Source: an uncultured delta proteobacterium (lineage in GTDB: Bacteria; Desulfobacterota; Desulfobacteria; Desulfobacterales; JAFDCJ01). From it: a DNA stretch of 64,000 bases. This document shows, piece after piece, positions 5,184 to 35,482 of this stretch (position 1 is its first letter; the number at the start of each line of letters is the position of its first letter). Location of the stretch: contig CAVYNY010000032.1 of NCBI GenBank assembly GCA_963769935.1, positions 1-64,000 of the forward strand, read 5' to 3'. Under the pieces are notes generated by a model. That model saw nothing but the letters and a program-made list of their open reading frames with translations. It made no database searches and was not told where the DNA came from. Position numbers and translations under genes: made by a program.

Positions 5184-5501
5184 CTATTTTTTCACGTTCA
5201 GATCATTCTTTACGGATTTGACGCCTTGGACGCCTCGGGCGATTTCACCCGCTTTATCGACGGCCTGTTGAGAACCAACGAAGCCGCTCAGTTGAACGAT
5301 GCCTTTGTAAGTTTCCACACTGATTTCAAATGACTTGAGGAAATCATCGGCGGCAAGTTGGGATTTTACCTTCGTCGTGATGACCGAATCGTCAACGTAT
5401 TCACCCGCACCTTCCTGTTTGGATGTCGATGCACAGGCTGCAAAGCCGGTGATCAGCACCACGAGCATAAAACAGCGGATAAACATAAATCTCTTTTTCA
5501 T
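5184..5501 (-). CDS. BON domain lipoprotein (OsmY-like)
   Basis: Lipobox FAAC, GEYVDDSVITTKVK, ISVETYKGIVQLSGFV, VQGVKSVKNDL. Confidence 0.9.
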   Translation of the reverse strand: MKKRFMFIRCFMLVVLITGFAACASTSKQEGAGEYVDDSVITTKVKSQLAADDFLKSFEISVETYKGIVQLSGFVGSQQAVDKAGEIARGVQGVKSVKNDLNVKK

Positions 5502-5623
5502 AGCGGATACTCCTTTCCGATCTTTTCACGCCGAATACTTCATGCATTGCGGCATAATGGTATGAGTGTTTGATGCAGCCGGGGAAATGGCCTCAAAGGC
5601 GTGCCGGCGCATGATACGCCGTT

Positions 5624-5803
5624 TTATTTCCCCACGACCTTCTTGAACTTCCCGATCTTTTCTTGAACGTTCCCGTCTAAGTTTTCGGCTTTGCCTTCGG
5701 CTTCCAATTTGCGATTCTTGACTATTTTCCCAAGGATCTGCTTGCTCTTACCTTTCAATTGGTGCATCTTGCCTTCGGCGTTGTCTTGTGTGCTTGATTT
5801 CAT
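5624..5803 (-). CDS. csbD: CsbD family stress protein
   Basis: MKSSTQDNAEGKMHQLKGKSKQILGK...LEAEGKAENLDGNVQEKIG; AGGAGG RBS. Confidence 0.85.
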   Translation of the reverse strand: MKSSTQDNAEGKMHQLKGKSKQILGKIVKNRKLEAEGKAENLDGNVQEKIGKFKKVVGK

Positions 5804-5831
5804 GGTGTTCCTCCTGTCTTTCATTGGATTG

Positions 5832-6020
5832 TTACCCAATACGAATTGCTGAGATGTTTCCTATGACTCCAAAGACACTCAAAAGCCAGACAACGACTGC
5901 AATAACCACTACCACATTCAGAATTCTCTTTAGTGTAGATTGCATCGGTATGTAGCTGTTGATTACCCATAGTATCACCCCAACGATAACCAAAACGATT
6001 ACCAAATGAATGAGCGGCAT
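5832..6020 (-). CDS. Small two-TM membrane protein (Thivi_2564-like)
   Basis: LIHLVIVLVIVGVILWVINSYIPMQSTLKRILNVVVVIAVVVWLL pattern. Confidence 0.8.
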   Translation of the reverse strand: MPLIHLVIVLVIVGVILWVINSYIPMQSTLKRILNVVVVIAVVVWLLSVFGVIGNISAIRIG

Positions 6021-6214: not shown

Positions 6215-6311
6215 GATCGACTCCTTTCCAACAACGCTAAAATCTTTTTATGAAGGTCTACGATTTCCGGTCCTTCGGAGAAGCGCCAGGACGTAACCCT
6301 ACCCCCACGCT

Positions 6312-6746
6312 TCAATGTTTTCGCTTTCTGGACACCAGTGCTCCTTGGATTGTCCTTAGAAGTTCTTCCAGTCTAAAAGGTTTAAATATGACTGAGTCAA
6401 CAGGCTCTCTTTCCACCTTCCTCCGAACAGTCTCCCTGTCAGAGCCGGTTATCAGTATAACCGGCGTGCTTGGAGATCTTTCCTTGATATGGCGGGCCAA
6501 ACTCAAACCGTCCATGGCGGGCATCTGAAGGTCGGTTAAAACCAAATCGAAAGAGCTTTCGAGAAAGGCAGCCAGCGCTTCAATGCCGTTGCCGGCAAGC
6601 GCCACCTCAAATCCCATGAACCCAAGGAATGTAGAAACTGCGTTTCGAATGGTCCTGTTATCATCAGCCACCAGTATACGTCTGGGTATTGCTTGCGCTG
6701 TGTTTGAGTTAACTGATTTTTGGATCTTATTGATGGTCTCTCCCAT
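6312..6746 (-). CDS. Single-domain response regulator
   Basis: ILVADD, DLVLTDLQMPAMDGL, VILITG, FKPF receiver motifs. Confidence 0.9.
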   Translation of the reverse strand: MGETINKIQKSVNSNTAQAIPRRILVADDNRTIRNAVSTFLGFMGFEVALAGNGIEALAAFLESSFDLVLTDLQMPAMDGLSLARHIKERSPSTPVILITGSDRETVRRKVEREPVDSVIFKPFRLEELLRTIQGALVSRKRKH

Positions 6747-6842: not shown

Positions 6843-7148
6843 TTAAATCTCCACCACCCCTTCCGTACGATTAACGGTGTGGAATATCAGTTCACAGGGC
6901 TCTTGGAGAAGGTTCATCGCACCCCGCAGTACCCTAAAATGCTCCGACTTCAGGTGGGCCGTAAGGTCCTCCAGGGTATCCCATTCCTCTATAAGACAGA
7001 GTCCATTTTCATTCTGCAAACTCTGGCAGAAGTCGCAGCTCCGGCATCCCTTCTTCGTCCTTATGGCACGGGTCAGGGATACAATCGCATCTGACAGCTC
7101 CGCGCGCTTCTTAGAAATGACCTTCATTCGCATGAGGACCAGAATCAT
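6843..7148 (-). CDS. ABM (putative quinol monooxygenase) family protein
   Basis: KKGCRSCDF..LIEEWDTLEDLTAHLKSEHF. Confidence 0.8.
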   Translation of the reverse strand: MILVLMRMKVISKKRAELSDAIVSLTRAIRTKKGCRSCDFCQSLQNENGLCLIEEWDTLEDLTAHLKSEHFRVLRGAMNLLQEPCELIFHTVNRTEGVVEI

Positions 7149-7160
7149 ACAAGGCATAAA

Positions 7161-7176
7161 TGCAAATGGCTTGCCA
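7161..7176 (-). promoter_or_regulatory. Canonical sigma54 -24/-12 element
   Basis: Minus strand TGGCAA-GCCAT-TTGCA, directly upstream of the ABM gene. Confidence 0.6.
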
Positions 7177-7371
7177 CCCAGCGAAAGAAAACCATAAGTG
7201 CTGATTTAACAGGGGGTTAGATTGATAGAAGAGAAAACTAGAGAAGGTTGAAACGATCGGGTTGCCCTCAATATTCGGTGGAGCCTCCATATGTTGAGGG
7301 ATGCGTTGCGGTGAGTCAGCCGGCTTATTAGCTGAATTTTGCACGAACTGGAGGCGTTCAGCATTCAGGTA

Positions 7372-9353
7372 TTAACCTGACTCCTTGGTCCCCGGCCGGA
7401 CGATCCCGAGCTTATGCATTCTCGCTCTCAAGGTGCTCGGGTGGAGGCCCAGGATCGCAGCGGCCCCGTCCTTGCCCTCGATGCGCCATCGGGTTTCGGA
7501 AAGCATTTTAAGAATCTGGCTTCGCTCGGTCTCTTCCAAGGTTCTCATCTTAGATGATAATAGGGGGGGTGAATGTATCCAGTTTGTCCGCCAGATGCAA
7601 GACCGGCCCGGGGCACAAGATGACGGCCCGTTCAATGATGTTTTCCAGCTCCCGGACGTTCCCGGGCCACGGGTAATCCTGCAGCGCTTGCATCGTCTCA
7701 TTCGGAATGGACGTAATCTGTTTGCCCAATTTTTTGGCGAATCGCTCAACCAAGGCCTGGACCAGCAGCGGGATGTCTGCTATCCGCTGCCGCAGCGGAG
7801 GGACAGTGATGGGAAAGACGTTCAGCCGATAGAAAAGGTCCTGCCGAAACCAGCCCTTGCGGACCCCTTCCTCAAGGTCTCGATTGGTCGTCGCCACGAT
7901 CCGCACATCGACTTTGGTGGTATAGGACGAGCCCAGGCGCTCAAACTCGTTATGTTGAATCACCCGCAGGAGCTTGGCCTGGATCTCCAGCGGCAGTTCT
8001 CCGATCTCGTCCAGGCAAAGGGTGGACCCATTGGCGACCTCGAACCGGCCGGCCCGCCGGGTATCGGCCCCGGTAAATGCCCCCTTCTCCCGGCCGAACA
8101 ACTCGCTCTCTATTAAATTGGCCGGCAGGGCCGCACAGTTGACACTAATCAGCGGCCGATCCTTGCGCGGGCTCAGGTTGTGAATGGCGCTGGCGATCAA
8201 CTCCTTGCCCGTTCCGGTCTCACCAAGGACGAGGACCGTTGTGTTCATAGGAGCGACCTGCTCCGCTCGATAGAGAACATACCTGAGACCGTCACTTTGC
8301 CCGATAATATTTTCGAATCCATGTCTCATTTTGTTCTCGTTGCGGAAGTAAAGATTCTCGGTCTCGAGCTGATCTTTCATTGCCTTGATTTCAGAAAGAG
8401 CCCTCCGAAGCTCGACCGTCCGCTCCTCGACCTGCCGTTCGAGATTGTCATGGGCTTTTTGCAGCTTCCCATCCATCTTCTTGCGCTCGGTGATGTCCAC
8501 CATTACGACAATAATGCCGATGGCGCCTTTATGGGTGCTAAATGCGTTGGCCCTCAATAGAAAGGAAATAGGCTCGTTATCCCCATGCTTGGAAGTGACC
8601 TCAACTGCGTGGAGTAACTTGTCTCTCAGGGCAGATAGAAGGACAAAGGGAGTCCCGCCGGGATAGCGGAGGTGAAATGCCTCGTCAAACGACTCAAAGA
8701 TTGGGCTTCTACCGAAGAGCCTATCGGCCGACTGACTTGCACGGATGATGCGGCCCCGGGGGTCGCAAAGAACAACTATTTCCGCAGCGTGTTCGAGGAT
8801 CTGAGTTGTCAGTTTTTCCTCTGCCAACATCGTTTCAGTGCGCTTTTGCTCCGTCAGGTCGGTAACCACCATGCACACCGCGCCGGGCATATCCGTGAGC
8901 TGAAGAGGGCTTGCGGCAAGCAAGACCGGTGCAACATTTTCACCGCCGGTCTGTATGGCCAATTCTGTCTTACTGTTCCCCTTTAACCCCCGCTTAACCA
9001 ATGCCTCAAATAATAGCAAGGTCTGTTGCTGAAATGTATGGGTAGATGGAAGATCCGATAACTTTTTCCAGCGACCCTTTGACGATATCTGCAAAACGCT
9101 GGTTACAAAAAAGGATCGTGCCGTCGGGGGACAGGGTGACGGCCCCCTCGTTCATGGTTTCGACCATGACCCGGTAAGGATGATCGGCGCCCGTTAGGGT
9201 AAAGACCCGATCGCCTTCCGCCGTTGAGACAACCAGGGCATCCGCCTCACCGCCTCGGATAGCGCGCAGAGTTTCCTCGGCTTCCATCATCCGCGACGTG
9301 AGTCCCTGCAACTCATCCAAAAGTTGCCGGTGTGTTCTATCCGATTTGCTCAT
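7372..9353 (-). CDS. PAS-PAS sigma54-dependent enhancer-binding protein (NtrC/FhlA-type AAA+ and HTH); two apparent frameshifts (~9017 and the G7 run at 7563-7569)
   Basis: [63 protein letters not shown]. Spread over three ORFs (9006..9353, 7550..9094, 7372..7749) that join colinearly. Confidence 0.85.
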
Positions 9354-9363
9354 GGGTTCGTGC

Positions 9364-9708
9364 TCATGAATTATTGGCTTTCAGATCAATGCCCACCAGA
9401 AACCTTTCCGTATCCGACATGTCGCCGATGAGCCTGCGCAGCGGCAGGGGGAGCTTCTTGATGAGCGTTGGGGCGGCGATAATCTGCTCTCCCTTGGCCA
9501 GCTTGGGCTGCTGGTAGATGTCTATCACCTCGAGTTCGTAGCGGCCTGCCAGGTGTTTTTTACAGAGTTCCTGGACATTGGCGATGGCACGGGTTGACTT
9601 TGGGGTCATCCCGCTAACATATAGCCGAAGAACGTACTTTGCCGGGTCTCGTCCCGCCGCCTCTTTTTCGAATTCCGCAGTGCTCGTTTCTTTTCTTTTT
9701 CTCTTCAT
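9364..9708 (-). CDS. kaiB: KaiB-like protein (second copy)
   Basis: YVLRLYVSGMTPKSTRAI..YELEVIDIYQQPKLA..QIIAAPTLIKKLPLPLRRLIGDMS. Confidence 0.9.
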   Translation of the reverse strand: MKRKRKETSTAEFEKEAAGRDPAKYVLRLYVSGMTPKSTRAIANVQELCKKHLAGRYELEVIDIYQQPKLAKGEQIIAAPTLIKKLPLPLRRLIGDMSDTERFLVGIDLKANNS

Positions 9709-9763
9709 GGCTGTTAAACCAAAAGTTATAACTCCGGCAGACTTTCCCCTGACTCCTGATTTA

Positions 9764-10096
9764 TCATCCGGAGACAGGACGAATGTCGAGCCCCACCAGC
9801 ACGCGCTCGGTGTTGGCCAGATCTCCGATAATCTTTTTAAGCGGTTCCGGAAGCTTCCTTACCAGGGTCGGTATGGCAATAATCTGGTCCCCTTTGGCAA
9901 GCTGGGGATTCTTTAAAAGGTCGATCACTTCAATGCGGTATTTCCCCGCGAGGTGCTCTTCGCAGATTTTCTTTAAATTAGCAAAGGCCGTAATCGATTT
10001 CGGGGTCTGACCGGCTACATATAGCCGGAGATTCCAGATTTCTTTTGTCGAATCGGTCTTGGCCTTCTTCCTCTTTCCGGCTGAGGCAGCTTTCAT
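9764..10096 (-). CDS. kaiB: Circadian clock protein KaiB
   Basis: [62 protein letters not shown]. Confidence 0.95.
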
Positions 10097-10097
10097 C

Positions 10098-11840
10098 TTA
10101 CTCTCCTTTGCCTTTTCTTTTTCGAGCGCTTCGCCGGACTGTTGAAGGTTCCCCCTTGCGAAGATGCGCCATTTTTAAATGGTCTTCTGCCAGAAGCGCT
10201 TGTCTTTTCCGCTCTTCTTCCGCCATCAAATGCAGCTCTTCAGATTCCGCCTCGAACTCGGCACGGAGGGCTGCGATCTTTGCTTCCAGGGCCTTGCGCT
10301 TGCGCTCCTGCCCGCGCTGCCAGCGCTGCGCCTCCTGCCGGCGTGCCAGCTCGGAGGCCTTTTCCTTGGTTTCCTGGACTGCCCGGGCACTGCCGGTTAA
10401 GGCCTCGCCGGAACCGGTATAGATGTCGATCAGGTCAATGCCCTGGTTGGTGAGCAGGAACTCTTGAATCTGGTTGGAGTGGACCATGCCGCGGGACTTC
10501 AAAATGTAGAGGCCCCGGTTGCGTTCCCCTCTGAGTTCGATATCCCGCAGGAGAAGCCACGTATCGATCAGAGAAGATATCTCTTCACTCGTCCGTTCAA
10601 GGCTGCCTCCAAAATGGGTGAGGTCCGTCAGGAAAGTAGAGATCTCGTTCATCTTCAAATAATCGATCAGGCGCGTTAATATGGATTTGACCGATGATGC
10701 TGTTCCCGCGGCGATCAGGTTGCTGATCGGGTCTACAATGAAAACCCGGGGCTTGAACTCCTCGATCGCCTTGTGGAAGGTGACAAGATGCATCTCAAGG
10801 CCGAAAAGCGAAGGTCGGGCTGATTGAAACTTGAGAAGCCCCTGTTTCACCCACCGGCGGAGATCGATGCCGATGGAGCCCATGTTCCGGATGATCTGTC
10901 TGGGCGATTCCTCGAAGGCAAAATACAGGCAGCGCTCACCGCGCAGGCAGGCGGCGTCGGCAAAGGTGGCCGACAAACTCGTTTTGCCGGTGCCCGCCGT
11001 ACCGGAGACGAGGATGGTGCTGCCCCGGTAGAACCCCTTCCCATCAAGCATGGCATCCAACTTGGGGACGCCCGTGGAGATGCGCTCCGTGGATACGGGG
11101 TAGTCGAGCCCCAGGGAGCTGATCGGCAGGATAGAGACGCCCCTATCGTCTATCAGGAAGGGGTACTCGTCGGAGCCGTGCGATGAGCCGCGGTACTTGA
11201 CAATCCGCAGGCGGCGGGTCGTAATTTGCTCCTCGACGCGGAGGTCGAGGAAGATCACGCAATCGGCCACGTATTCTTCGAGCCCGTAGCGTGTCAGGGT
11301 CTTGTCGCCGCTTTCCCCCGTAACGACGGCCGTCACACCGCGCTCTTTCAACCAGTGAAAAAGCCGGCGAAGCTCTGCCCGAAGGATAGCCGTATTCGAC
11401 AGCCCGGAGAAAAGGGCTTCGATGGTATCTAAGACAACCCGCTTGGCTCCGATGGAATCAATGGCATTGCCCAGGCGGATGAACAATCCCTCCAAATCGT
11501 AATCACCCGTCTCCGCAATCTCGTTGCGCGCGATGTGGACGTGGTCCGTTGCGATGAGACCCCGCGACACCATGTCAGGGAGATCAAAACCAAAGGAGAT
11601 GAAGTTTTGCGCAAGATCCTCCGGCGTCTCCTCGAAAGTCATAATGACCCCGGGTTCGGCGTAATCCATGGCGCCCCGCATGAGAAACTCCATGGCAAAA
11701 AGTGTTTTGCCGGAACCCGCAGTGCCGCAGATCAGGGTCGACCTGCCCCTCGGAAGCCCGCCCTTCGTGATCTCATCGAGCCCCCTGATGCCCGTCGGGC
11801 ATTTTTCGAGAACATCAACAGCCTGTTTTGCCTTAACCAT
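10098..11840 (-). CDS. kaiC: Double-domain KaiC (KaiC2-like) with C-terminal coiled coil
   Basis: Two Walker A motifs ([16 protein letters not shown]), FEE motifs, phosphosite region [12 protein letters not shown], long charged coiled-coil tail; GGAGG RBS before ATG at 11840. Confidence 0.95.
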
Positions 11841-12189
11841 CGCCACCTCCCAGCATCATTACGAATCTGCAGTCATGCCCATAACAGAATCCGGCACTCC
11901 TTTGTTGGTGAATTATCAAAAAATCCATTACCAGACAATAGAAAAAACGCAGGATGTGCCCCGTCCAAAATCACCGGGATATTCAGGGCGTTCAGTAATG
12001 CAGGCTTATCGTCAGCTCCAGGTCTTGCCCGTCATAGCGGAAGCTGGCTGCGGAAAACGAAGGCGCGCCGTGGGCTTCCGGTCGATTGACTCATTCATGA
12101 TCTTGCTCCCGGCTCCAATCTGCATCGCCTGAGCGGGTCGAAGCGGAGCCCAGGGTTACTCCCGCCGGATTTCGCATTATCCCATCCGG

Positions 12190-12402
12190 GATTTGCGGTC
12201 CTTCGGAGAAGCGCCAGAACGTTACCCCACCCCCACGCTTCAATGTTTTCGCTCTCTGGACACCAGTGCTCCTTGGATTGTCCTTTGAAGGTTTTCCAGA
12301 CTAAAGGGTTTAAATATGACCGAGTCAACAGGTCCTCCTTCTGCCTTATTGCGAAGAGTCTCCCTGTCAGAGCCGGTTATCAGTATAACCGGCGTGCTTG
12401 GG
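12190..12402 (-). pseudogene. Diverged duplicate of the response-regulator 3' half and its downstream sequence (paralog of 6262-6473)
   Basis: Shared long blocks by eye, e.g. GGACACCAGTGCTCCTTGGATTGTCCTT and AGTCTCCCTGTCAGAGCCGGTTATCAGTATAACCGGCGTGCTTGG. Confidence 0.8.
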
Positions 12403-13164: not shown

Positions 13165-14715
13165 TTATGGCTGGCGGATATCCAGTTTTCGCATGCGGGC
13201 GCGCAGCGTGCTGCGGTCGAGTCCAAGGATTTCTGCAGCCCCGTTTTGGCCGCTTACCTTCCAATGAGCCTGTTCAAGCACCCGGACAATATAATCACGC
13301 TCAACCTCATTCAGTGTTTTTTTTGCGGTCGTTAAATCCTTGGGCGGCTTTTTTAATTCATCCACCAGGTGCAGTTTGGGACCCGAGGAATTGATTACCG
13401 CCCGTTCGAGGACGTTTTCAAGCTCCCTGACATTGCCGGGCCATTGATACTCCTGTAAGGCATTCATAACGCTCACCGGGATGCTTGCAATGTGCTTCCC
13501 CAGTCGCTTGGATATTTTAGCGACGAAAAAATCCACCAGCAGCGCCATGTCTTCCATCCGCTCTCGCAGCGGGGGCACCGTAATCGGAAAAATGTTTAGC
13601 CGGTACCAAAGATCTTCCCGAAACCGGCCCCGGCGGACCTCCTCTTCCAGCTGGCGGTTGGTGGCCGCAATCACCCGCACATCGACTTTGATCGTGCCGG
13701 AGCTGCCCAACCGTTCAAACTCGCCATCCTGGATGACCCTGAGCAGTTTGGGCTGCAGTTCCAGCGGCAGCTCCCCGATCTCATCCAGAAAAAGGGTGGC
13801 GCCGTCGGCCACTTCAAAGCGCCCCAACTGTCTGGCATGGGCACCGGTGAAAGCACCTTTCTCGTGGCCGAACAATTCACTTTCAATGAGGTTGGCGGGC
13901 AGGGTGGCGCAATTCACTTTCACTAAGGCCCGATCTTTACGCAGGCTTAAGTGATGAATGGCCCGGGCCACCAGCTCCTTGCCGGTACCGGTCTCACCGA
14001 GAACCAGAACGGTCGTATCGGTTGGGGCAATTTGTTCAACTTTATAGAATATATAATTGAGCGCGTTACTTTGGCCGATAACGTTTTCATAATTGTAGCG
14101 CGATTTGATTTCTTCCTGCAGATAGGCTCTCTCGGCCTCAAGCCGGTTCTTTAACTCCTTTATTTCGGAAAGAGCGGCCCTAAGATCAAGCTCGGCCTGC
14201 ATGCGCTCGGTAATATCCTGGATAGAACCGGACATCCGGATCGCTTCGCCCTCGCTGTTCCACATTGCCTGGCCGCGTGCGAGAAACCACAGGTACTCGC
14301 CGGATTTTTTCTGCAGGCGGTATTCGACCTTGTATGGTGCACGTTCTTGAAGATGGCGTTCGATCGCGGTCCAGATGGGCTCGGCGTCCTCCGGGTGCAG
14401 TCGGCTGCGGAAAGAATCTATCCGGCCGGGAAACTCCTCGGACGAGTACCCCAGGATTTCCCGGAAACGATCCGAGTAGAAGACGGTGTTCGACAGCAGG
14501 TCCCAGTCCCAGAGGCCGTCGGTCGAGCCTGCCAGGGCCAAAAGATAGCGCTCTTCACTGGTGCGCAAGGACGCTTTCGCCCGGCCGTGTCGCGACCGCT
14601 GTATGAACAGCCGGACGACAAGCAAGGTCACGCCGACACAGAAAAAAACCAGGACGATGATTGCCGTTGGTATAGAGCCCAAAACAACTCCTCTATCGCT
14701 TGCAGCTGTTGTCAA
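13165..14715 (-). CDS. TM-PAS sigma54-dependent enhancer-binding protein, possibly lacking its original N-terminal sensor
   Basis: TM helix, PAS_3 ([24 protein letters not shown]), GAFTGA AAA+ domain, [19 protein letters not shown]. Confidence 0.9.
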
Positions 14716-30497: not shown

Positions 30498-31502
30498 TTA
30501 GGGCCTTCTCTGCAATTCCACACTCAATAGGGAGATGTCGTCCTTGGGCACCGCATTATTGCCGAAGATCAAAAGTGATTCGAAAACCGCTGCCACCAGT
30601 CTGGCGACTGTCTGGTCCTTTAGTTCCTTCAGCCGGCTGTAAAATCGCTCATTGCCGTAAAACAGACCCTGTGCATTCTGATACTCATACACACCATCGG
30701 TATAAAAGATTAATTTGTCGCCTGCCAGGAGCTGCTCGTTTTCCTCTTCGTATATAATCGGTTCCTCATCGGACAGCCTCAGATCGATAGTCCCGAGCGG
30801 CCGGCCGCCTTTTCTCAAAAGCTTCAGGGTTCCGTTTTTGCGCAAAAGGATCGGCGGCGGGTGCCCGGCGCTGCTGGATGTCAACCTGCCGGTTTTAGCA
30901 TTTACAATGACATAGTTCATGGTAAAGAAATTGTTGAACCGGTCAAAGGTAAACTCCCGGTCAAGGAATTCGAGTACCTGCGCCGGTTTTCTTACGCGCT
31001 GCGCCTTAAGCGAATCCCGCGGCATCATCATCGTATGGCCGCTCTGGGGCTGTAAATATTGAAAGACGGAAACCGCCACCATCGCAGCCGGAACGCCGTG
31101 GCCGGCAACATCGATGATGTAAATGGCCCAATGTTCATTGTCCAACTGAGTGAGGTTGAATATATCGCCCCCGATTTTTTCGCAGGGTTTAAATTCCCAG
31201 GCTACCTTCAAACCTTCCAGGGAAGATGCTCTTCTGGGCAGGAGACTTCGCTGAATATTGGCGGCCGCCGACAGATCCTGATCGATGCGCTGTTGTTTGA
31301 GCATCAATTCGCGGTTCAGGGTTTTGAGCTTTTTTTCGAGGGCCGAATATTTGAAGATCAATTCGTGCAGGAGCCGGTTGTTGATCCGGCTGTCATTGAG
31401 CCGGGCGCGGCACTCCAGAAGCTGCCGGATCAGGGACAACCGCTGCATATCCGCGGGGCTGATCGGCTGGGGGGCATCCAGTAGGACGTCTTCGTATTTC
31501 AT
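30498..31502 (-). CDS. PP2C/SpoIIE (RsbU-like) serine phosphatase
   Basis: AANIQRSLLP, IGGDIF, IDVAGHGVPAA, SAGHPPP, FYTDGV, DDISLL. Confidence 0.92.
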   Translation of the reverse strand: MKYEDVLLDAPQPISPADMQRLSLIRQLLECRARLNDSRINNRLLHELIFKYSALEKKLKTLNRELMLKQQRIDQDLSAAANIQRSLLPRRASSLEGLKVAWEFKPCEKIGGDIFNLTQLDNEHWAIYIIDVAGHGVPAAMVAVSVFQYLQPQSGHTMMMPRDSLKAQRVRKPAQVLEFLDREFTFDRFNNFFTMNYVIVNAKTGRLTSSSAGHPPPILLRKNGTLKLLRKGGRPLGTIDLRLSDEEPIIYEEENEQLLAGDKLIFYTDGVYEYQNAQGLFYGNERFYSRLKELKDQTVARLVAAVFESLLIFGNNAVPKDDISLLSVELQRRP

Positions 31503-32368
31503 CAGCTGCCCGGGCTTTCAGCAAAACGGCTAAAATCCGGTTTGAAGTCCGCATCGAGGATCTCATCGATACCGACGTTTTCCAAAGACGCCAGGAGTCC
31601 GGCTACATGCCTGATGGTGTGCTTATCTTTGATAATACTGCCGTGTTGCGGTGCGATAATTTCGCAGGGAATCCGGGAAATTTTTTCAAGTGCATAGCGC
31701 AGGGCCCGGGTTGAAGTCATGATCTTATTGTGAAAATGAAGTATCCCTAAAACCGGGCAATCCGGCAGATTCCGGACACAGGAATCATCGTCCCGGCAAT
31801 GCAGACAGGCATCCGTCAATTGCAGGTACAATTCCCAATCCTTGCCGTAGCTGCCGAAAAGGTCGCTGGTAAAAAGGACCCTGGTCCTGGTATCGAAGGA
31901 TACGAAGCTGCCGGCCGCATGGGAGTAGGGGGTTTTGGTGAACTGAATTTTGCGGCCCGATGAAAACGTATACTCAAATTGCAGCTTGCTGAGCGCAACC
32001 AGGCGGGATGCCGTGGAATAGTGCCGGATAAACATCAGATTTTCAGAGGCCGATATGATTTTTAAATCCTGCCGGCCGATAATGTCTTCGAAATTGGGAA
32101 TACTTCCGCAGAGGTCGGGATCATAATGCTGGTACACCAGCGCCTGTATTTGTTGGGGAGCAATGCCGGTCTGCAGGATCTTCATCATAACGGTCGCAAA
32201 ATCGGGACGGCTCCCGCCGTCGATGACCACGGCTTCATCACCGTCGACAATCAGATACGGGTTGCAATGCAGCCCCGACGGAGCGTCGTAAAATCCCACC
32301 CAATAAATTCCCTCGGCAATTTCAACTGAACTTTCATAATCCTGCGCAGCGGATTCCGGTTTGACCAT
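31502..32368 (-). CDS. MBL-fold protein, ODP (oxygen-binding di-iron protein)/FprA-N type
   Basis: LHCNPYLIVDGDEAVVIDGG, QHYDPDLC, H..GSF, LFTSDLFG, IAPQHG; no flavodoxin domain. Confidence 0.8.
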   Translation of the reverse strand: MVKPESAAQDYESSVEIAEGIYWVGFYDAPSGLHCNPYLIVDGDEAVVIDGGSRPDFATVMMKILQTGIAPQQIQALVYQHYDPDLCGSIPNFEDIIGRQDLKIISASENLMFIRHYSTASRLVALSKLQFEYTFSSGRKIQFTKTPYSHAAGSFVSFDTRTRVLFTSDLFGSYGKDWELYLQLTDACLHCRDDDSCVRNLPDCPVLGILHFHNKIMTSTRALRYALEKISRIPCEIIAPQHGSIIKDKHTIRHVAGLLASLENVGIDEILDADFKPDFSRFAESPGS

Positions 32369-32557
32369 TCGTACGATCCCTTTTTATTGTCGAGATAAAA
32401 ACGTGTATGAGAATTAATCCTAATACATACGGGGATTGGTGACAAGCTGTTTGTTGCGGCAGGGTAATCGATCCTTCCGATTTGCTGCATAAAATCTTTG
32501 ACGACGTCCTCCAGAGTGCCGTAGATGAATGCCATGGGGTAGTGGAATAAATGAAAC

Positions 32558-32998
32558 CTACAGTTTCAAAAAGCCGTCCAGGGTCAGGCTGGTTGCCAGC
32601 ATCACGCTGTTAATATCCTGATGCGCGGTCCAGCTTTCAGCTTGTCCTGTATTGGGGATCAAGCCAGAATTTTTCGATTGCTTCGCCCAAACGGGCATAC
32701 CGTCGGAGGGCGCTGACCTGCGAATAGATGGCGTGAATATTAGCGAGCATCTTCGGATTTTCTTCAATCAAGCCCTCGATCCCATTCCAGACGGTCGTCG
32801 TATGTCTCATCGGACTTGCGTTCATTCATCTGCTTGCCGATTCGAAGTCCGCCGGTAAAGTTCAAGAAAGTTGCAAACGGCAAAAGCATCCGTCCAGAGA
32901 TATCGCCGCGGCGGCTTGGCAGCGGTTGCCAGGCCGGTTGCATCGGAGAATTCGGCCATGATCCCCTTAACAGTAGAAATGTCTGCCGGTTGGTTCAT
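32558..32998 (-). pseudogene. Internally deleted conserved hypothetical gene (RRYLWTDAFAVCNF ... HQDINSVMLATSL)
   Basis: N- and C-terminal motifs of a larger protein are joined across stops and frameshifts. Confidence 0.55.
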
Positions 32999-33088
32999 AT
33001 CAAATTAGATCCAGCATCGACCTCTTAGAAGCGACGGTCTTGCGTCTGCCTCTGTTAGATTGTTATGCGGATTTAGGCAACGTTAAAG

Positions 33089-34267
33089 CTAACACAGCTC
33101 ACCTTGGGCCTGGTCCTGCGTGTATTTCAAATCCGAAAGCAGCGACAACTCGGCTTTGGCAAGCTCCCGGCCCAAGTAGGCAGCATGGTCCAGCTGCGAA
33201 ATGAGCTTCTTCTCTATCAGGGTGGCACAAATACTCGCCGAATCCTTGCCCTCGATCATGTTCATGAGCCTTCCGTCGTTGCTGTAATGTTCAATCAGCA
33301 GCGGATGCTCTTTGCCTTTCATTACCATGATCACGAAATAGCCTGCCGGATCGAGTTTCAGTCGCTTCGCGGGTTTGGCCCTTTGAATCTCGAGCAAATC
33401 TACCTTCAGGCCGGCTTCGTATGGTTGAACCGCCTGTTTATCCAACAGCTCCAAGCGGCCGGCGAGTGTGGACCGGTCACTTTCGCCGATCAAGTCGACC
33501 GGCTGTATTTGCTTTCTGAAATGGCTGACTTCGCCTTCGGTAAGGTTTTTCAACACCGGCCTGGCGCCGCGGGCACCGATAATTCGCTTGGTTTTGTCAA
33601 AGCCGCTGCCGGATAGATTTAGAAGCGCATCACCCGGTAAATGTCCTTCGATGTCGCTGCCCCAGAGCACTAAATGGCGGAGGTGGGGGTTGGCGATGAC
33701 ATTCTTGACGAGATGCTCTACTCCGAGGTTCTCGGTGCTGATGGTCCCCAAGATTGCAATTTTAGAAGAAAGAATGCTTAATTCCGGTTCATCGAAGTGA
33801 ACCCCTTGCAGGAGAGCCACGGCAATCGATTTTGCAGCGTTAAATACGCGGTAGTCACCCGGCTGCGCGGGCCAGTTTTGGATGCTAAATTCATCCGGTC
33901 GGATGAGTTCCATCCTGCAAGGATCGATAGAATCTGCCTCAACTTCGTCAAGGCTGTCCATAACTTCATTGAATGTGTTGTATGCCGGAACCGGCAGACA
34001 CGGTTTGCACCCCATTCATCCGTGCATTTTCAGGAAATCAGCATCTTTGATCCAGCGCTCGAAATCATTTTCGATCTCCGCTAAACAGTGATCGGATTCG
34101 ATTTTTCGAAATCCCCTTATTTTTTCGTAAATGCTGTTTAGGACGTCTCCATAAAAGCATGAACATGTGCGGCACTTTTCGTGCTGCAGGATTTCCTTGA
34201 AGTCCGTGTGAATCCGCTTAAAAGCCGTGATTTTTTGCGCATGATGCGAGGATGCGGTATTTTTCAT
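33089..34267 (-). CDS. Candidate selenoprotein, 392 aa: Cys-rich N-domain (CxxCxC; U84-xx-C-xx-C) + MtrA-like domain + DUF4346-like domain
   Basis: ORFs 34016..34285 and 33089..34015 are in frame, separated only by TGA (GGA TGA ATG GGG TGC AAA CCG TGT). SECIS-like hairpin follows. MtrA-like TENLGVEHLVKNVIANPHLR..EGHLPGDAL; DUF4346-like LDPAGYFVI..ISQLDHAAYLGRELAKAE. GGAGG RBS before ATG at 34267. Confidence 0.75.
33979..34000 (-). promoter_or_regulatory. Putative bacterial SECIS hairpin
   Basis: mRNA UGU-C-UGCCG-GUUC-CGGCA-U-ACA starting 16 nt after the UGA; apical loop begins with G about 25 nt downstream. Confidence 0.6.
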
Positions 34268-34448: not shown

Positions 34449-34471
34449 GTTAAGCTGTCACTGATTGCTTA

Positions 34472-34627
34472 GGGTTCACGAAAAAATTAATTCACAATTT
34501 TAGGCGTTGAGGCGCCCGGACGGCAAGGCGCGAAAACGCAGGAATATCTGGATATTCGGAGCCTTCGCAACGCAGCCGGGCGGGATGCATCGGCGTATAA
34601 AATGTGAAGTTATTTTTGAGTGAGCCC
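34472..34627. mobile_element. MITE with ~30-bp imperfect TIRs and TTA target duplication
   Basis: tta|GGGTTCACGAAAAAATTAATTCACAATTT ... AAAATGTGAAGTTATTTTTGAGTGAGCCC|tta. Confidence 0.75.
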
Positions 34628-35482
34628 TTAGATTAGCCGAATTGCGATGATATAAATTAAACATTTTTGCGCGACATGTCGAATGATCAGTGTAACGGCA
34701 TCAAGTATTGCATTGGGCTTAATAGACAGTTGCGGCGCAAATCATTAATTTCCAAATAAGTTGATTTGCTCAGCAAATTCATCTTTCCAGATGTTTCACC
34801 TCGTGCCGTCCGGGCTTTAACCTTCTGCCTCAATGCAGCCCAGGCTGCCGGGAAGAAGATTAGAGATTGTTATAATTTTACGGGATGTCAAAAATTATAC
34901 GTAAGATTTTATACATGACGGCATAATTATTGTGTATACATACAGCGTTTTTTTATTTGGCACGGTACGGTAATTTTAAAACAACTACAAAAAGTCGAAT
35001 ACTGCACTAATTATAACGTGTGTATAGCTGGTGAAACTAACATTCTTATCATGCTCCGGTCATCCTAGGGTTAAAGTCTAAAATTAATATCTAGGCTTGA
35101 GAACGCCGATTTTCCTTTAAACGAAGAAGCGGTACGAAAAAAGAAGTAAAAAGAGTAAATTCCAGCGTGAAAGAAAAACCAAATATGCCGCAATCGAATA
35201 CATGTTTCCGGAAAATTAAACCTGAACTTCTGTATTCCCGGAATACTGTCGCGATGCGGTGCAGGGCCGAAAGTGCACGAGCAAAAGAAATGCAGGTATT
35301 ATAGAAAGTCGAGCATCGGTATTAATATATGATTATATTGTGGCATTAAATGGACATTGCGACTGTGTAGATGCACAGAGAGAGGTAAGGCGGCAGCAAG
35401 ACCTGTAGGTGATTAACTGAAAACGGCAGGCCGTGTTTTAATTTACTATCACTGTCAAATCAGCCCGAACCGGCCGCCCACT

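Follow-up and report, generated by a model that had tools for sequence, protein, structure and literature searches.

A kaiC-kaiB-kaiB operon that ends in a sigma-54 activator gene: a candidate transcriptional output of KaiA-less Kai systems

Introduction

The closest described relative of the system reported here is the KaiBC hourglass of Rhodobacter sphaeroides, for which the parts of PMC10076222 consulted name no output protein. How KaiA-less KaiBC systems reach gene expression is a standing question, and outside the cyanobacteria an output other than SasA-RpaA must be used (PMC5520375). PAS domains recur among the known partners of Kai proteins: the PAS-ABC region of KidA binds fold-switched KaiB, and PAS genes beside kai genes outside the cyanobacteria are mentioned in the same paper (PMC9478674), while the KaiC of Pseudomonas putida binds the N-terminal PAS domain of its kinase (10.1101/2022.01.26.477890). 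Here we describe an operon in which kaiC and two kaiB genes are followed by the gene of a sigma-54 enhancer-binding protein, found in a 64,000-nucleotide stretch (the window) at the start of contig C32 (CAVYNY010000032.1) of the uncultured delta proteobacterium assembly GCA_963769935.1. It is a real and conserved variant of the KaiA-less Kai operon, apparently not described before, whose putative transcriptional output can be read from the sequence. Kinase outputs conceal their targets, but this variant shows activator, predicted site, promoter and targets in one block; because these adjoin, the question of Kai output becomes testable in a laboratory strain with four proteins and one reporter.

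Results

The operon and its proteins

The operon comprises the following genes, in order of transcription.

10098..11846, minus strand: kaiC of the KaiC2/Rhodobacter type, 582 residues from a GTG start with an ATG at 11840; PF06745, E 6.5e-110
9764..10096, minus strand: kaiB-a, the more conserved subtype; PF07689, best match 8FWJ_M, E 6.7e-31
9364..9708, minus strand: kaiB-b, the second subtype, with its own N-terminal helix; PF07689, best match 8FWJ_M, E 1.4e-26
7372..9353, minus strand: sigma-54 enhancer-binding protein gene, encoding segment-PAS-PAS-coiled coil-AAA+-Fis helix-turn-helix (HTH), lying in three frames with two one-base insertions
9168..9353, minus strand: Kai-linked N-terminal segment of the activator, a predicted helix (residues 8-33) and beta-hairpin (40-51); kaiB lies directly upstream in relatives

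An earlier note, made from the letters alone, had described these genes as co-directional and closely spaced, and their coordinates and Pfam domains agree with that description: the gaps between them are 1, 55 and 10 nt, the activator gene beginning 10 nt past kaiB-b. The Pfam KaiC domain occurs twice in KaiC, each half with Walker A and catalytic EE motifs. The best PDB match is R. sphaeroides KaiC (8DBA, E 2.1e-190), whose Ser-Ser pair aligns with S424-S425, and since the alignment spans residues 14-557 and a C-terminal coiled-coil extension is present, the two ATPase domains, phosphosite region and tail proposed earlier all stand. The two KaiB proteins do differ, as had been claimed, being 60% identical to one another with R. 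sphaeroides KaiB as the best match of both. Across 69 loci KaiB-b has diverged twice as far as KaiB-a (mean distances of 0.33 and 0.16).

The genome (8.0 Mb in 41 contigs, 96.7% complete, 5.4% contamination) gave no match to KaiA (PF07688), a query that was positive in the Synechococcus elongatus control, and the window contains no match to any of five histidine kinase queries that each gave 4-78 matches genome-wide; the absence of both from the window, noted from the letters, is therefore upheld. With its double-domain KaiC, Ser-Ser sites, tail and KaiB without KaiA, the system is by sequence of the KaiC2-KaiB2 type of R. sphaeroides, and the lack of KaiA separates it from the KaiABC oscillator. 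A second kai locus of a different subtype (L022:3904-7169), with kaiC, one kaiB and a PAS kinase bearing a divergent form of the segment, lies on C25, a small contig that may be contamination. Judged by the taxa of its closest relatives, the host would be a member of the Desulfobacterota and a probable anaerobe.

The last gene of the operon has no HisKA or HATPase domain and ends instead in AAA+-HTH. Its pieces match the Pfam families PAS, PAS_9, Sigma54_activat (PF00158, E 2.7e-69), AAA lid (PF25601) and HTH_8 (PF02954), and Walker A and B, the GAFTGA loop (at about 8066-8083) and the HTH are all intact, which bears out the architecture read from the letters and identifies the product as an enhancer-binding protein; rpoN is present in the genome. 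Database names of matching proteins are "formate hydrogenlyase transcriptional activator" and "sigma 54-interacting regulator".

The N-terminal segment follows kaiB

No Pfam family covers the segment. A profile of it drew no relative from the PDB, the top match being a coiled coil at E 0.025, and the Atlas gave unnamed clusters only (top 0.92). An AlphaFold2 model of residues 1-175 of an intact orthologue has a mean predicted local distance difference test score (pLDDT) of 78, with helix 8-33, hairpin 40-51 and a PAS domain at 69-165; the hairpin is of low confidence (pLDDT about 55-63). Foldseek with this model retrieved generic PAS proteins only. A model of the full-length activator was poor (pLDDT 61, predicted template modelling score 0.35) and was not used.

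The first 115 residues of the activator match 967 longer proteins, and GAFTGA occurs in 93 of the best 120. In a first survey of species genomes, biased to close relatives, 97 relatives yielded 79 loci; the segment was located by tblastn in 78 of these and by profile in the 79th, which likewise has two kaiB genes upstream. A kaiB gene ends no more than 700 nt upstream of the segment in 77/78 loci, and an AAA+ domain follows in 60/78, with one intact frame through the HTH in 45 of these 60 (some of the others stop at a contig edge). Where an activator locus has at least 3.3 kb of upstream DNA, kaiC and two kaiB genes are found in 42 of 43 cases; linkage of the kai genes to the activator, whose absence elsewhere would have told against the earlier note, is thus conserved in other genomes.

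An even draw of 400 genomes from the phylum gave matches in 52/401 (own genome included), and 38 matched places were examined. Above a cut-off of 50 bits, set at a gap in the score distribution, there are 25 strong matches in 24 genomes: 17 histidine kinases, 5 sigma-54 activators (4 of whose loci overlap the first survey), 1 HD-GYP protein, 1 LuxR-HTH protein and 1 PAS-only protein. All 24 strong matches that have upstream DNA follow kaiB directly. The earlier note had described an N-terminus common to Kai-linked kinases, and the 17 kinases behind kaiB give this substance; the last gene described here shares both segment and PAS domain with the last gene of kaiC-kaiB-PAS/histidine-kinase operons, as judged on the sampled kinases rather than on those of model organisms. 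Of 13 weaker copies (24-39 bits), 5 are preceded by kaiC and kaiB genes that form a pair of a different subtype. In a second phylum (400 genomes, centred on a Methylobacter record) 10 genomes matched, or 11 with the centre; kaiB is upstream of the segment in 10/11 and the eleventh has only about 110 nt upstream. No GAFTGA was seen there in the 1.5 kb examined, a stretch too short to reach the ends of long proteins. The best 150 representatives of 50% clusters include 3 with a sigma-54 AAA+ domain and 90 with kinase-like motifs (by a crude pattern). From the counts in the phylum sample and the cluster representatives, kinase forms predominate, and activator forms make up a genuine though minor branch, present in 5 of 400 genomes.

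By its neighbours, then, the segment appears to be an exchangeable input joined to varied output domains. Could the genes merely share a stress island and a transcript, with the activator acting alone on its promoters and Kai output lying elsewhere? The setting lends this some colour: the window is a patchwork of stress-type genes that includes a second activator and an insertion sequence, a similar island lies on C38, and the locus is patchy, kaiB occurring in 1/22 of the other genomes of the genus. Against this, kaiB accompanies the strong copies in 77/78, 24/24 and 10/11 loci, no matter which output domain follows the segment, and fusion to AAA+ cores has happened repeatedly (see below), so that we regard an arrangement without contact as very improbable.

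Further forms of the segment were encountered. In L085, L089, L090 and L146 segment and PAS are fused to a LuxR-type HTH (by Pfam for L146, by eye for the others), which we propose as a putative second one-component Kai output. Locus L147 joins the segment to PAS-GAF-HD-GYP and is a candidate for Kai-linked cyclic-dinucleotide turnover. Three proteins (P0121, P0124 and P0202) carry two copies of the segment.

The second KaiB as a candidate adaptor

KaiB-b and the segment recur together as a unit. They are found without kaiC or kaiB-a nearby (L017 and L058). In two other loci they come a second time, after a complete operon, and the second copy leads into another type of output: in L030 a kinase is followed by an activator and the second kaiB is partial, and in L082 an activator is followed by a kinase. 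Because of this recurrence we favour KaiB-b as the likely adaptor for the output protein.

Other contacts have evidence of their own. The segment and PAS1 might bind KaiC directly, or KaiB-a. The signal might also run the other way, the PAS domains sensing a cue and tuning KaiB and KaiC as KidA does, with the activator responding chiefly to ligands of its own PAS domains. The P. putida KaiC binds its PAS partner without any KaiB (10.1101/2022.01.26.477890), and KidA modulates the clock and is not an output of it (PMC9478674). PAS1 distances follow the CII domain of KaiC best (partial r 0.46), PAS2 differs among orthologues (P0003 versus P0063), and L076 and L158 have solely a kaiB-a-type gene upstream. 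Direct binding of KaiC, or a signal running back to the Kai proteins, fits poorly, however, with the recurrence of KaiB-b plus segment without kaiC and its duplication as a pair, and the exchange of kinase, HD-GYP, LuxR and AAA+ behind one segment suits an output better than an input role. Taken together we consider these alternatives unlikely, though they keep an appreciable weight, and retain KaiB-b as the preferred partner.

In a tree of 97 rows the Kai-linked AAA+ domains occupy three separate positions (with 44, 5 and 1 of them), and a single Kai-linked clade is rejected (approximately unbiased test, p 1.4e-54) in a careful tree of 24 rows chosen from the 97. As these domains do not form one clade, the segment seems to have been joined to activator cores repeatedly (at least three times), or swapped among paralogues.

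A promoter cassette and its predicted targets

The DNA beyond the activator gene contains a predicted sigma-54 promoter with tandem sites and the first predicted targets.

7266..7299, no strand assigned: a tandem pair of imperfect palindromes, each 16 nt long and separated by 2 nt (24.3 and 20.5 bits with a matrix trained without the window sequence), the predicted upstream activator site
7161..7177, minus strand: sigma-54 -24/-12 element (GG-N10-GC), a consensus match 88 nt from the palindromes
6843..7148, minus strand: ABM-family gene (PF03992), the first predicted target, with its ATG 12 nt past the -12 element
6312..6746, minus strand: single-domain response regulator (PF00072)
5184..6020, minus strand: genes of a small membrane protein, CsbD and BON (Pfam), with no cassette of their own; these families recur behind cassettes elsewhere

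A -24/-12 site lies within 450 nt past the activator stop in 38/53 loci, mostly at about 157 nt, compared with 0/53 on the other strand and 0.77 in shuffles. Palindromes occur in 36/38 of the orthologous promoters and stand 94-99 nt from the -24/-12 element in 35 of the 36; the spacing of 88 nt in the window is about one helical turn shorter. With matrices trained without the window, three such cassettes are found in the genome, compared with 0 and 1 in two shuffled genomes. Those outside the window, at C1:164879(-) and C9:82459(+), each precede a paralogous gene of about 101 codons with a PEP-CTERM-like tail (by eye), and the one on C9 is followed further by an AAA-type gene and a TPR-like gene (by eye). 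Among main-clade activator loci, 41/54 carry cassettes, 71 in total; none was found in 8 loci with another output or in 20 non-activator loci of the phylum sample.

The 118 open reading frames behind cassettes include members of the ABM (18), BON (8), DUF3309 (6), OmpA (5), CsbD (4), PEP-CTERM (4), DUF932 (4), DUF4398 (3), glutaredoxin (2) and receiver (2) families; 50 have no family and some of these are probably spurious. BON and CsbD are markers of general-stress regulons. In most loci that have the ABM gene its start codon lies 11-13 nt past the -12 element, so that a near-leaderless mRNA is predicted, and the first ABM codons are retained even at loci where another gene comes next. The response regulator is possibly co-transcribed with the ABM gene.

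We considered a regulon of many promoters within the window and rejected it, a single cassette being found in 1-36 kb. Autoregulation as a general feature was likewise rejected. A sigma-54 site precedes kaiC in 2/53 loci and a full cassette in one, L074. Of the seven cassettes that L074 carries within 18 kb, the one ahead of kaiC is 272 nt away from it; feedback is possible in that genome only. Scans for sigma-70 promoters and terminators returned chance level.

A proposed mechanism and the points against it

Because a segment tied to kaiB heads the activator, and a conserved sigma-54 promoter with likely sites adjoins it, switching of stress and envelope genes by Kai without a kinase relay is likely. 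On balance we favour, with some reserve, a model in which the state of the Kai proteins would gate transcription from the conserved cassette without a phosphorelay, the N-terminal segment of the activator docking on Kai proteins. By analogy with R. sphaeroides KaiBC, phosphorylation of KaiC and binding of KaiB would follow the ATP/ADP ratio; the helix-hairpin and PAS1 would read the Kai state via KaiB-b; and the long coiled coil would pass on the signal, releasing or restraining assembly of the AAA+ ring (either sign is conceivable). In keeping with established enhancer-binding protein biology, the HTH would bind the tandem palindromes and so keep the ring in place about 90-100 nt ahead of the -24/-12 element, and sigma-54 polymerase would open at the ABM promoter and its copies.

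As the host is, by its relatives, probably a non-photosynthetic anaerobe, an energy-state switch or delay seems more likely in such organisms than a day clock. An hourglass driving daily sigma-54 transcription would find its parts in this KaiC, in which the phosphosites and the coiled-coil tail known from the R. sphaeroides protein are retained. Yet the R. sphaeroides hourglass depends on photosynthesis to impose a swing in ATP/ADP from outside (PMC10076222), whereas the carriers here are by name mostly metagenome-assembled genomes of Desulfobacterales and Syntrophales, and other non-cyanobacterial Kai systems work in stress (PMC11372060). We therefore hold a true day timer to be improbable and keep to the energy-state switch. 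A more general proposal is tentative, and we would put it somewhat short of an even chance: that the segment might be the general output plug of KaiA-less Kai systems, acting via an adaptor KaiB, and that the sigma-54 fusion might be the first direct link from Kai to RNA polymerase, with a defined DNA site and a stress regulon that responds to cellular energy charge in anaerobes of sediments. The candidate docking segment, and the part proposed for the second KaiB, would apply equally to the far commoner kinase, HD-GYP and LuxR forms.

Several observations weigh against the gating model. No kai gene is found near eight of the 13 weak copies, and KaiB-b does not stand out in the distance correlations (partial r 0.32 versus 0.36 for KaiB-a). 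No -24/-12 promoter lies downstream in 15/53 activator loci, and 13/54 have no cassette at all in the DNA examined. The count of positive loci is partly circular, because the matrix was trained on activator loci, and less DNA was available for each negative locus (1.7-8.5 kb for those from the phylum sample). With a cassette upstream of kaiC in one locus only, there is no general feedback loop. Related activators that lack the segment (at 13165-14715 in the window, and on C36 and C38) could share the site; their HTH helices are similar, not identical. Finally, a single gene of 2 kb carries two frameshifts, more than the background of the assembly, in which 2/61 AAA+ domains are split and about 90 kb covered by homologues contain one other, weakly supported break.

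Two frameshifts in the activator gene

Because their density tops that background, local loss of activator function is possible. Alignment to five orthologous DNA sequences places both insertions.

9012..9017, minus strand: first frameshift, one extra base, inside PAS1
7572..7576, minus strand: second frameshift, an insertion of one base in the stretch that joins the AAA+ lid to the HTH

The earlier note had pointed to about 9017 and to 7563-7569. The former is borne out; the latter, a run of seven C, is rejected, as the alignments put the extra base a few bases earlier, and neither insertion is in a homopolymer.

Sequencing error and recent loss are about equally probable as the cause. For this genome alone, then, and as a matter separate from the readings weighed above, it comes only just short of an even call that the activator is a recent pseudogene and the output of the operon lost. 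Two independent non-homopolymer insertions fall in one gene of an assembly that is clean elsewhere, and 7/55 orthologues are broken too (4/13 in a set presumed to be long-read and 3/42 of the others). On the other side, no further gap interrupts 2,029 aligned nt (four of the five orthologue alignments have none beyond the two extra bases), every catalytic motif is intact, and three intact cassettes remain in the genome. The ratio of nonsynonymous to synonymous substitution rates is 0.14-0.48 for the pieces in the window, which overlaps the 0.08-0.43 among intact orthologues (some middle pieces include a non-matching second PAS); the middle piece is 91-93% identical to the intact relatives P0001, P0003 and P0004 (656-659 residues). 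The same contig also contains, at 36.0-38.5 kb amid fragments of RND efflux genes, an unreadable low-complexity block rich in A and G (GC skew 0.58), which looks like an assembly artefact from poor reads. Whatever the cause of the frameshifts, the claim made for the family is unaffected.

Other features of the window

The kai block lies between the two copies of a 212-bp direct repeat (91%), at 6262-6473 and 12190-12401. The repeat takes in the 3' end of the receiver gene and may be a trace of insertion of the block. The second activator (13165-14715; membrane anchor-PAS-AAA+-HTH) has an 87% identical copy at C38:21279-22926, and C38 carries 75-94% copies of several more genes of the island. 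At the start of the contig (90-932 and 1335-1886) a DDE_5 transposase lies beside a shortened AI-2E transporter gene. Genes for a SpoIIE-type phosphatase, an ODP-family protein of metallo-beta-lactamase fold and an MtrA-PterinBD fusion lie in a row at 30498-34015. A 163-bp element resembling a miniature inverted-repeat transposable element, at 34468-34631, recurs widely across the genome at 91-95% identity, with at least 10 copies listed.

Comparison with known systems

Linkage of kai genes to a sigma-54 activator is not described in the literature searched (few subscription papers and no supplements), and genes of this kind could appear in the neighbourhood tables that go with PMC5520375, PMC10278575 and the Pseudomonas preprint; the parts consulted of PMC12288465, PMC11665890, PMC10278575 and PMC11372060 make no mention of a sigma-54 output.

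Most similar is the R. sphaeroides hourglass (8DBA, 8FWI, 8FWJ; PMC10076222), which is alike in its KaiC with Ser-Ser and tail, its KaiB, which both KaiB proteins here match best, and its lack of KaiA; here, in contrast, there are two KaiB subtypes, a probably non-photosynthetic host and a transcription activator within the operon. The kaiC-kaiB-PAS/histidine-kinase operons of Rhodopseudomonas palustris and R. sphaeroides (PMC4794148; PMC5520375) have the same gene order with a PAS protein last, whereas here AAA+-HTH replaces the kinase domains and would give a one-component route with a recognisable DNA site. The kinase forms in our genome samples carry the same N-terminal segment. In Pseudomonas (10.1101/2022.01.26.477890) and Legionella (via PMC11372060), again outside the cyanobacteria, KaiC also has a role of the stress type and is partnered by a PAS protein, but the Pseudomonas system has no KaiB and uses a kinase with a single-domain regulator.

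KidA of S. elongatus (PMC9478674) offers a parallel for an N-terminal PAS region of a signalling protein as the likely contact of KaiB. It differs in having GGDEF-EAL domains, in lying outside the kai operon and in tuning the period, and the likeness drawn here is one of PAS architecture. Among PAS-regulated sigma-54 enhancer-binding proteins the GAFTGA AAA+ core, the Fis HTH and tandem sites about 100 nt from -24/-12 are shared, while the input here is the Kai-linked segment, with no GAF or receiver domain. The SasA-RpaA/CikA output of the KaiABC clock likewise links the state of the Kai proteins to transcription. It does so by a phosphorelay with a KaiB-like domain, and in this it differs from the sigma-54 form described here.

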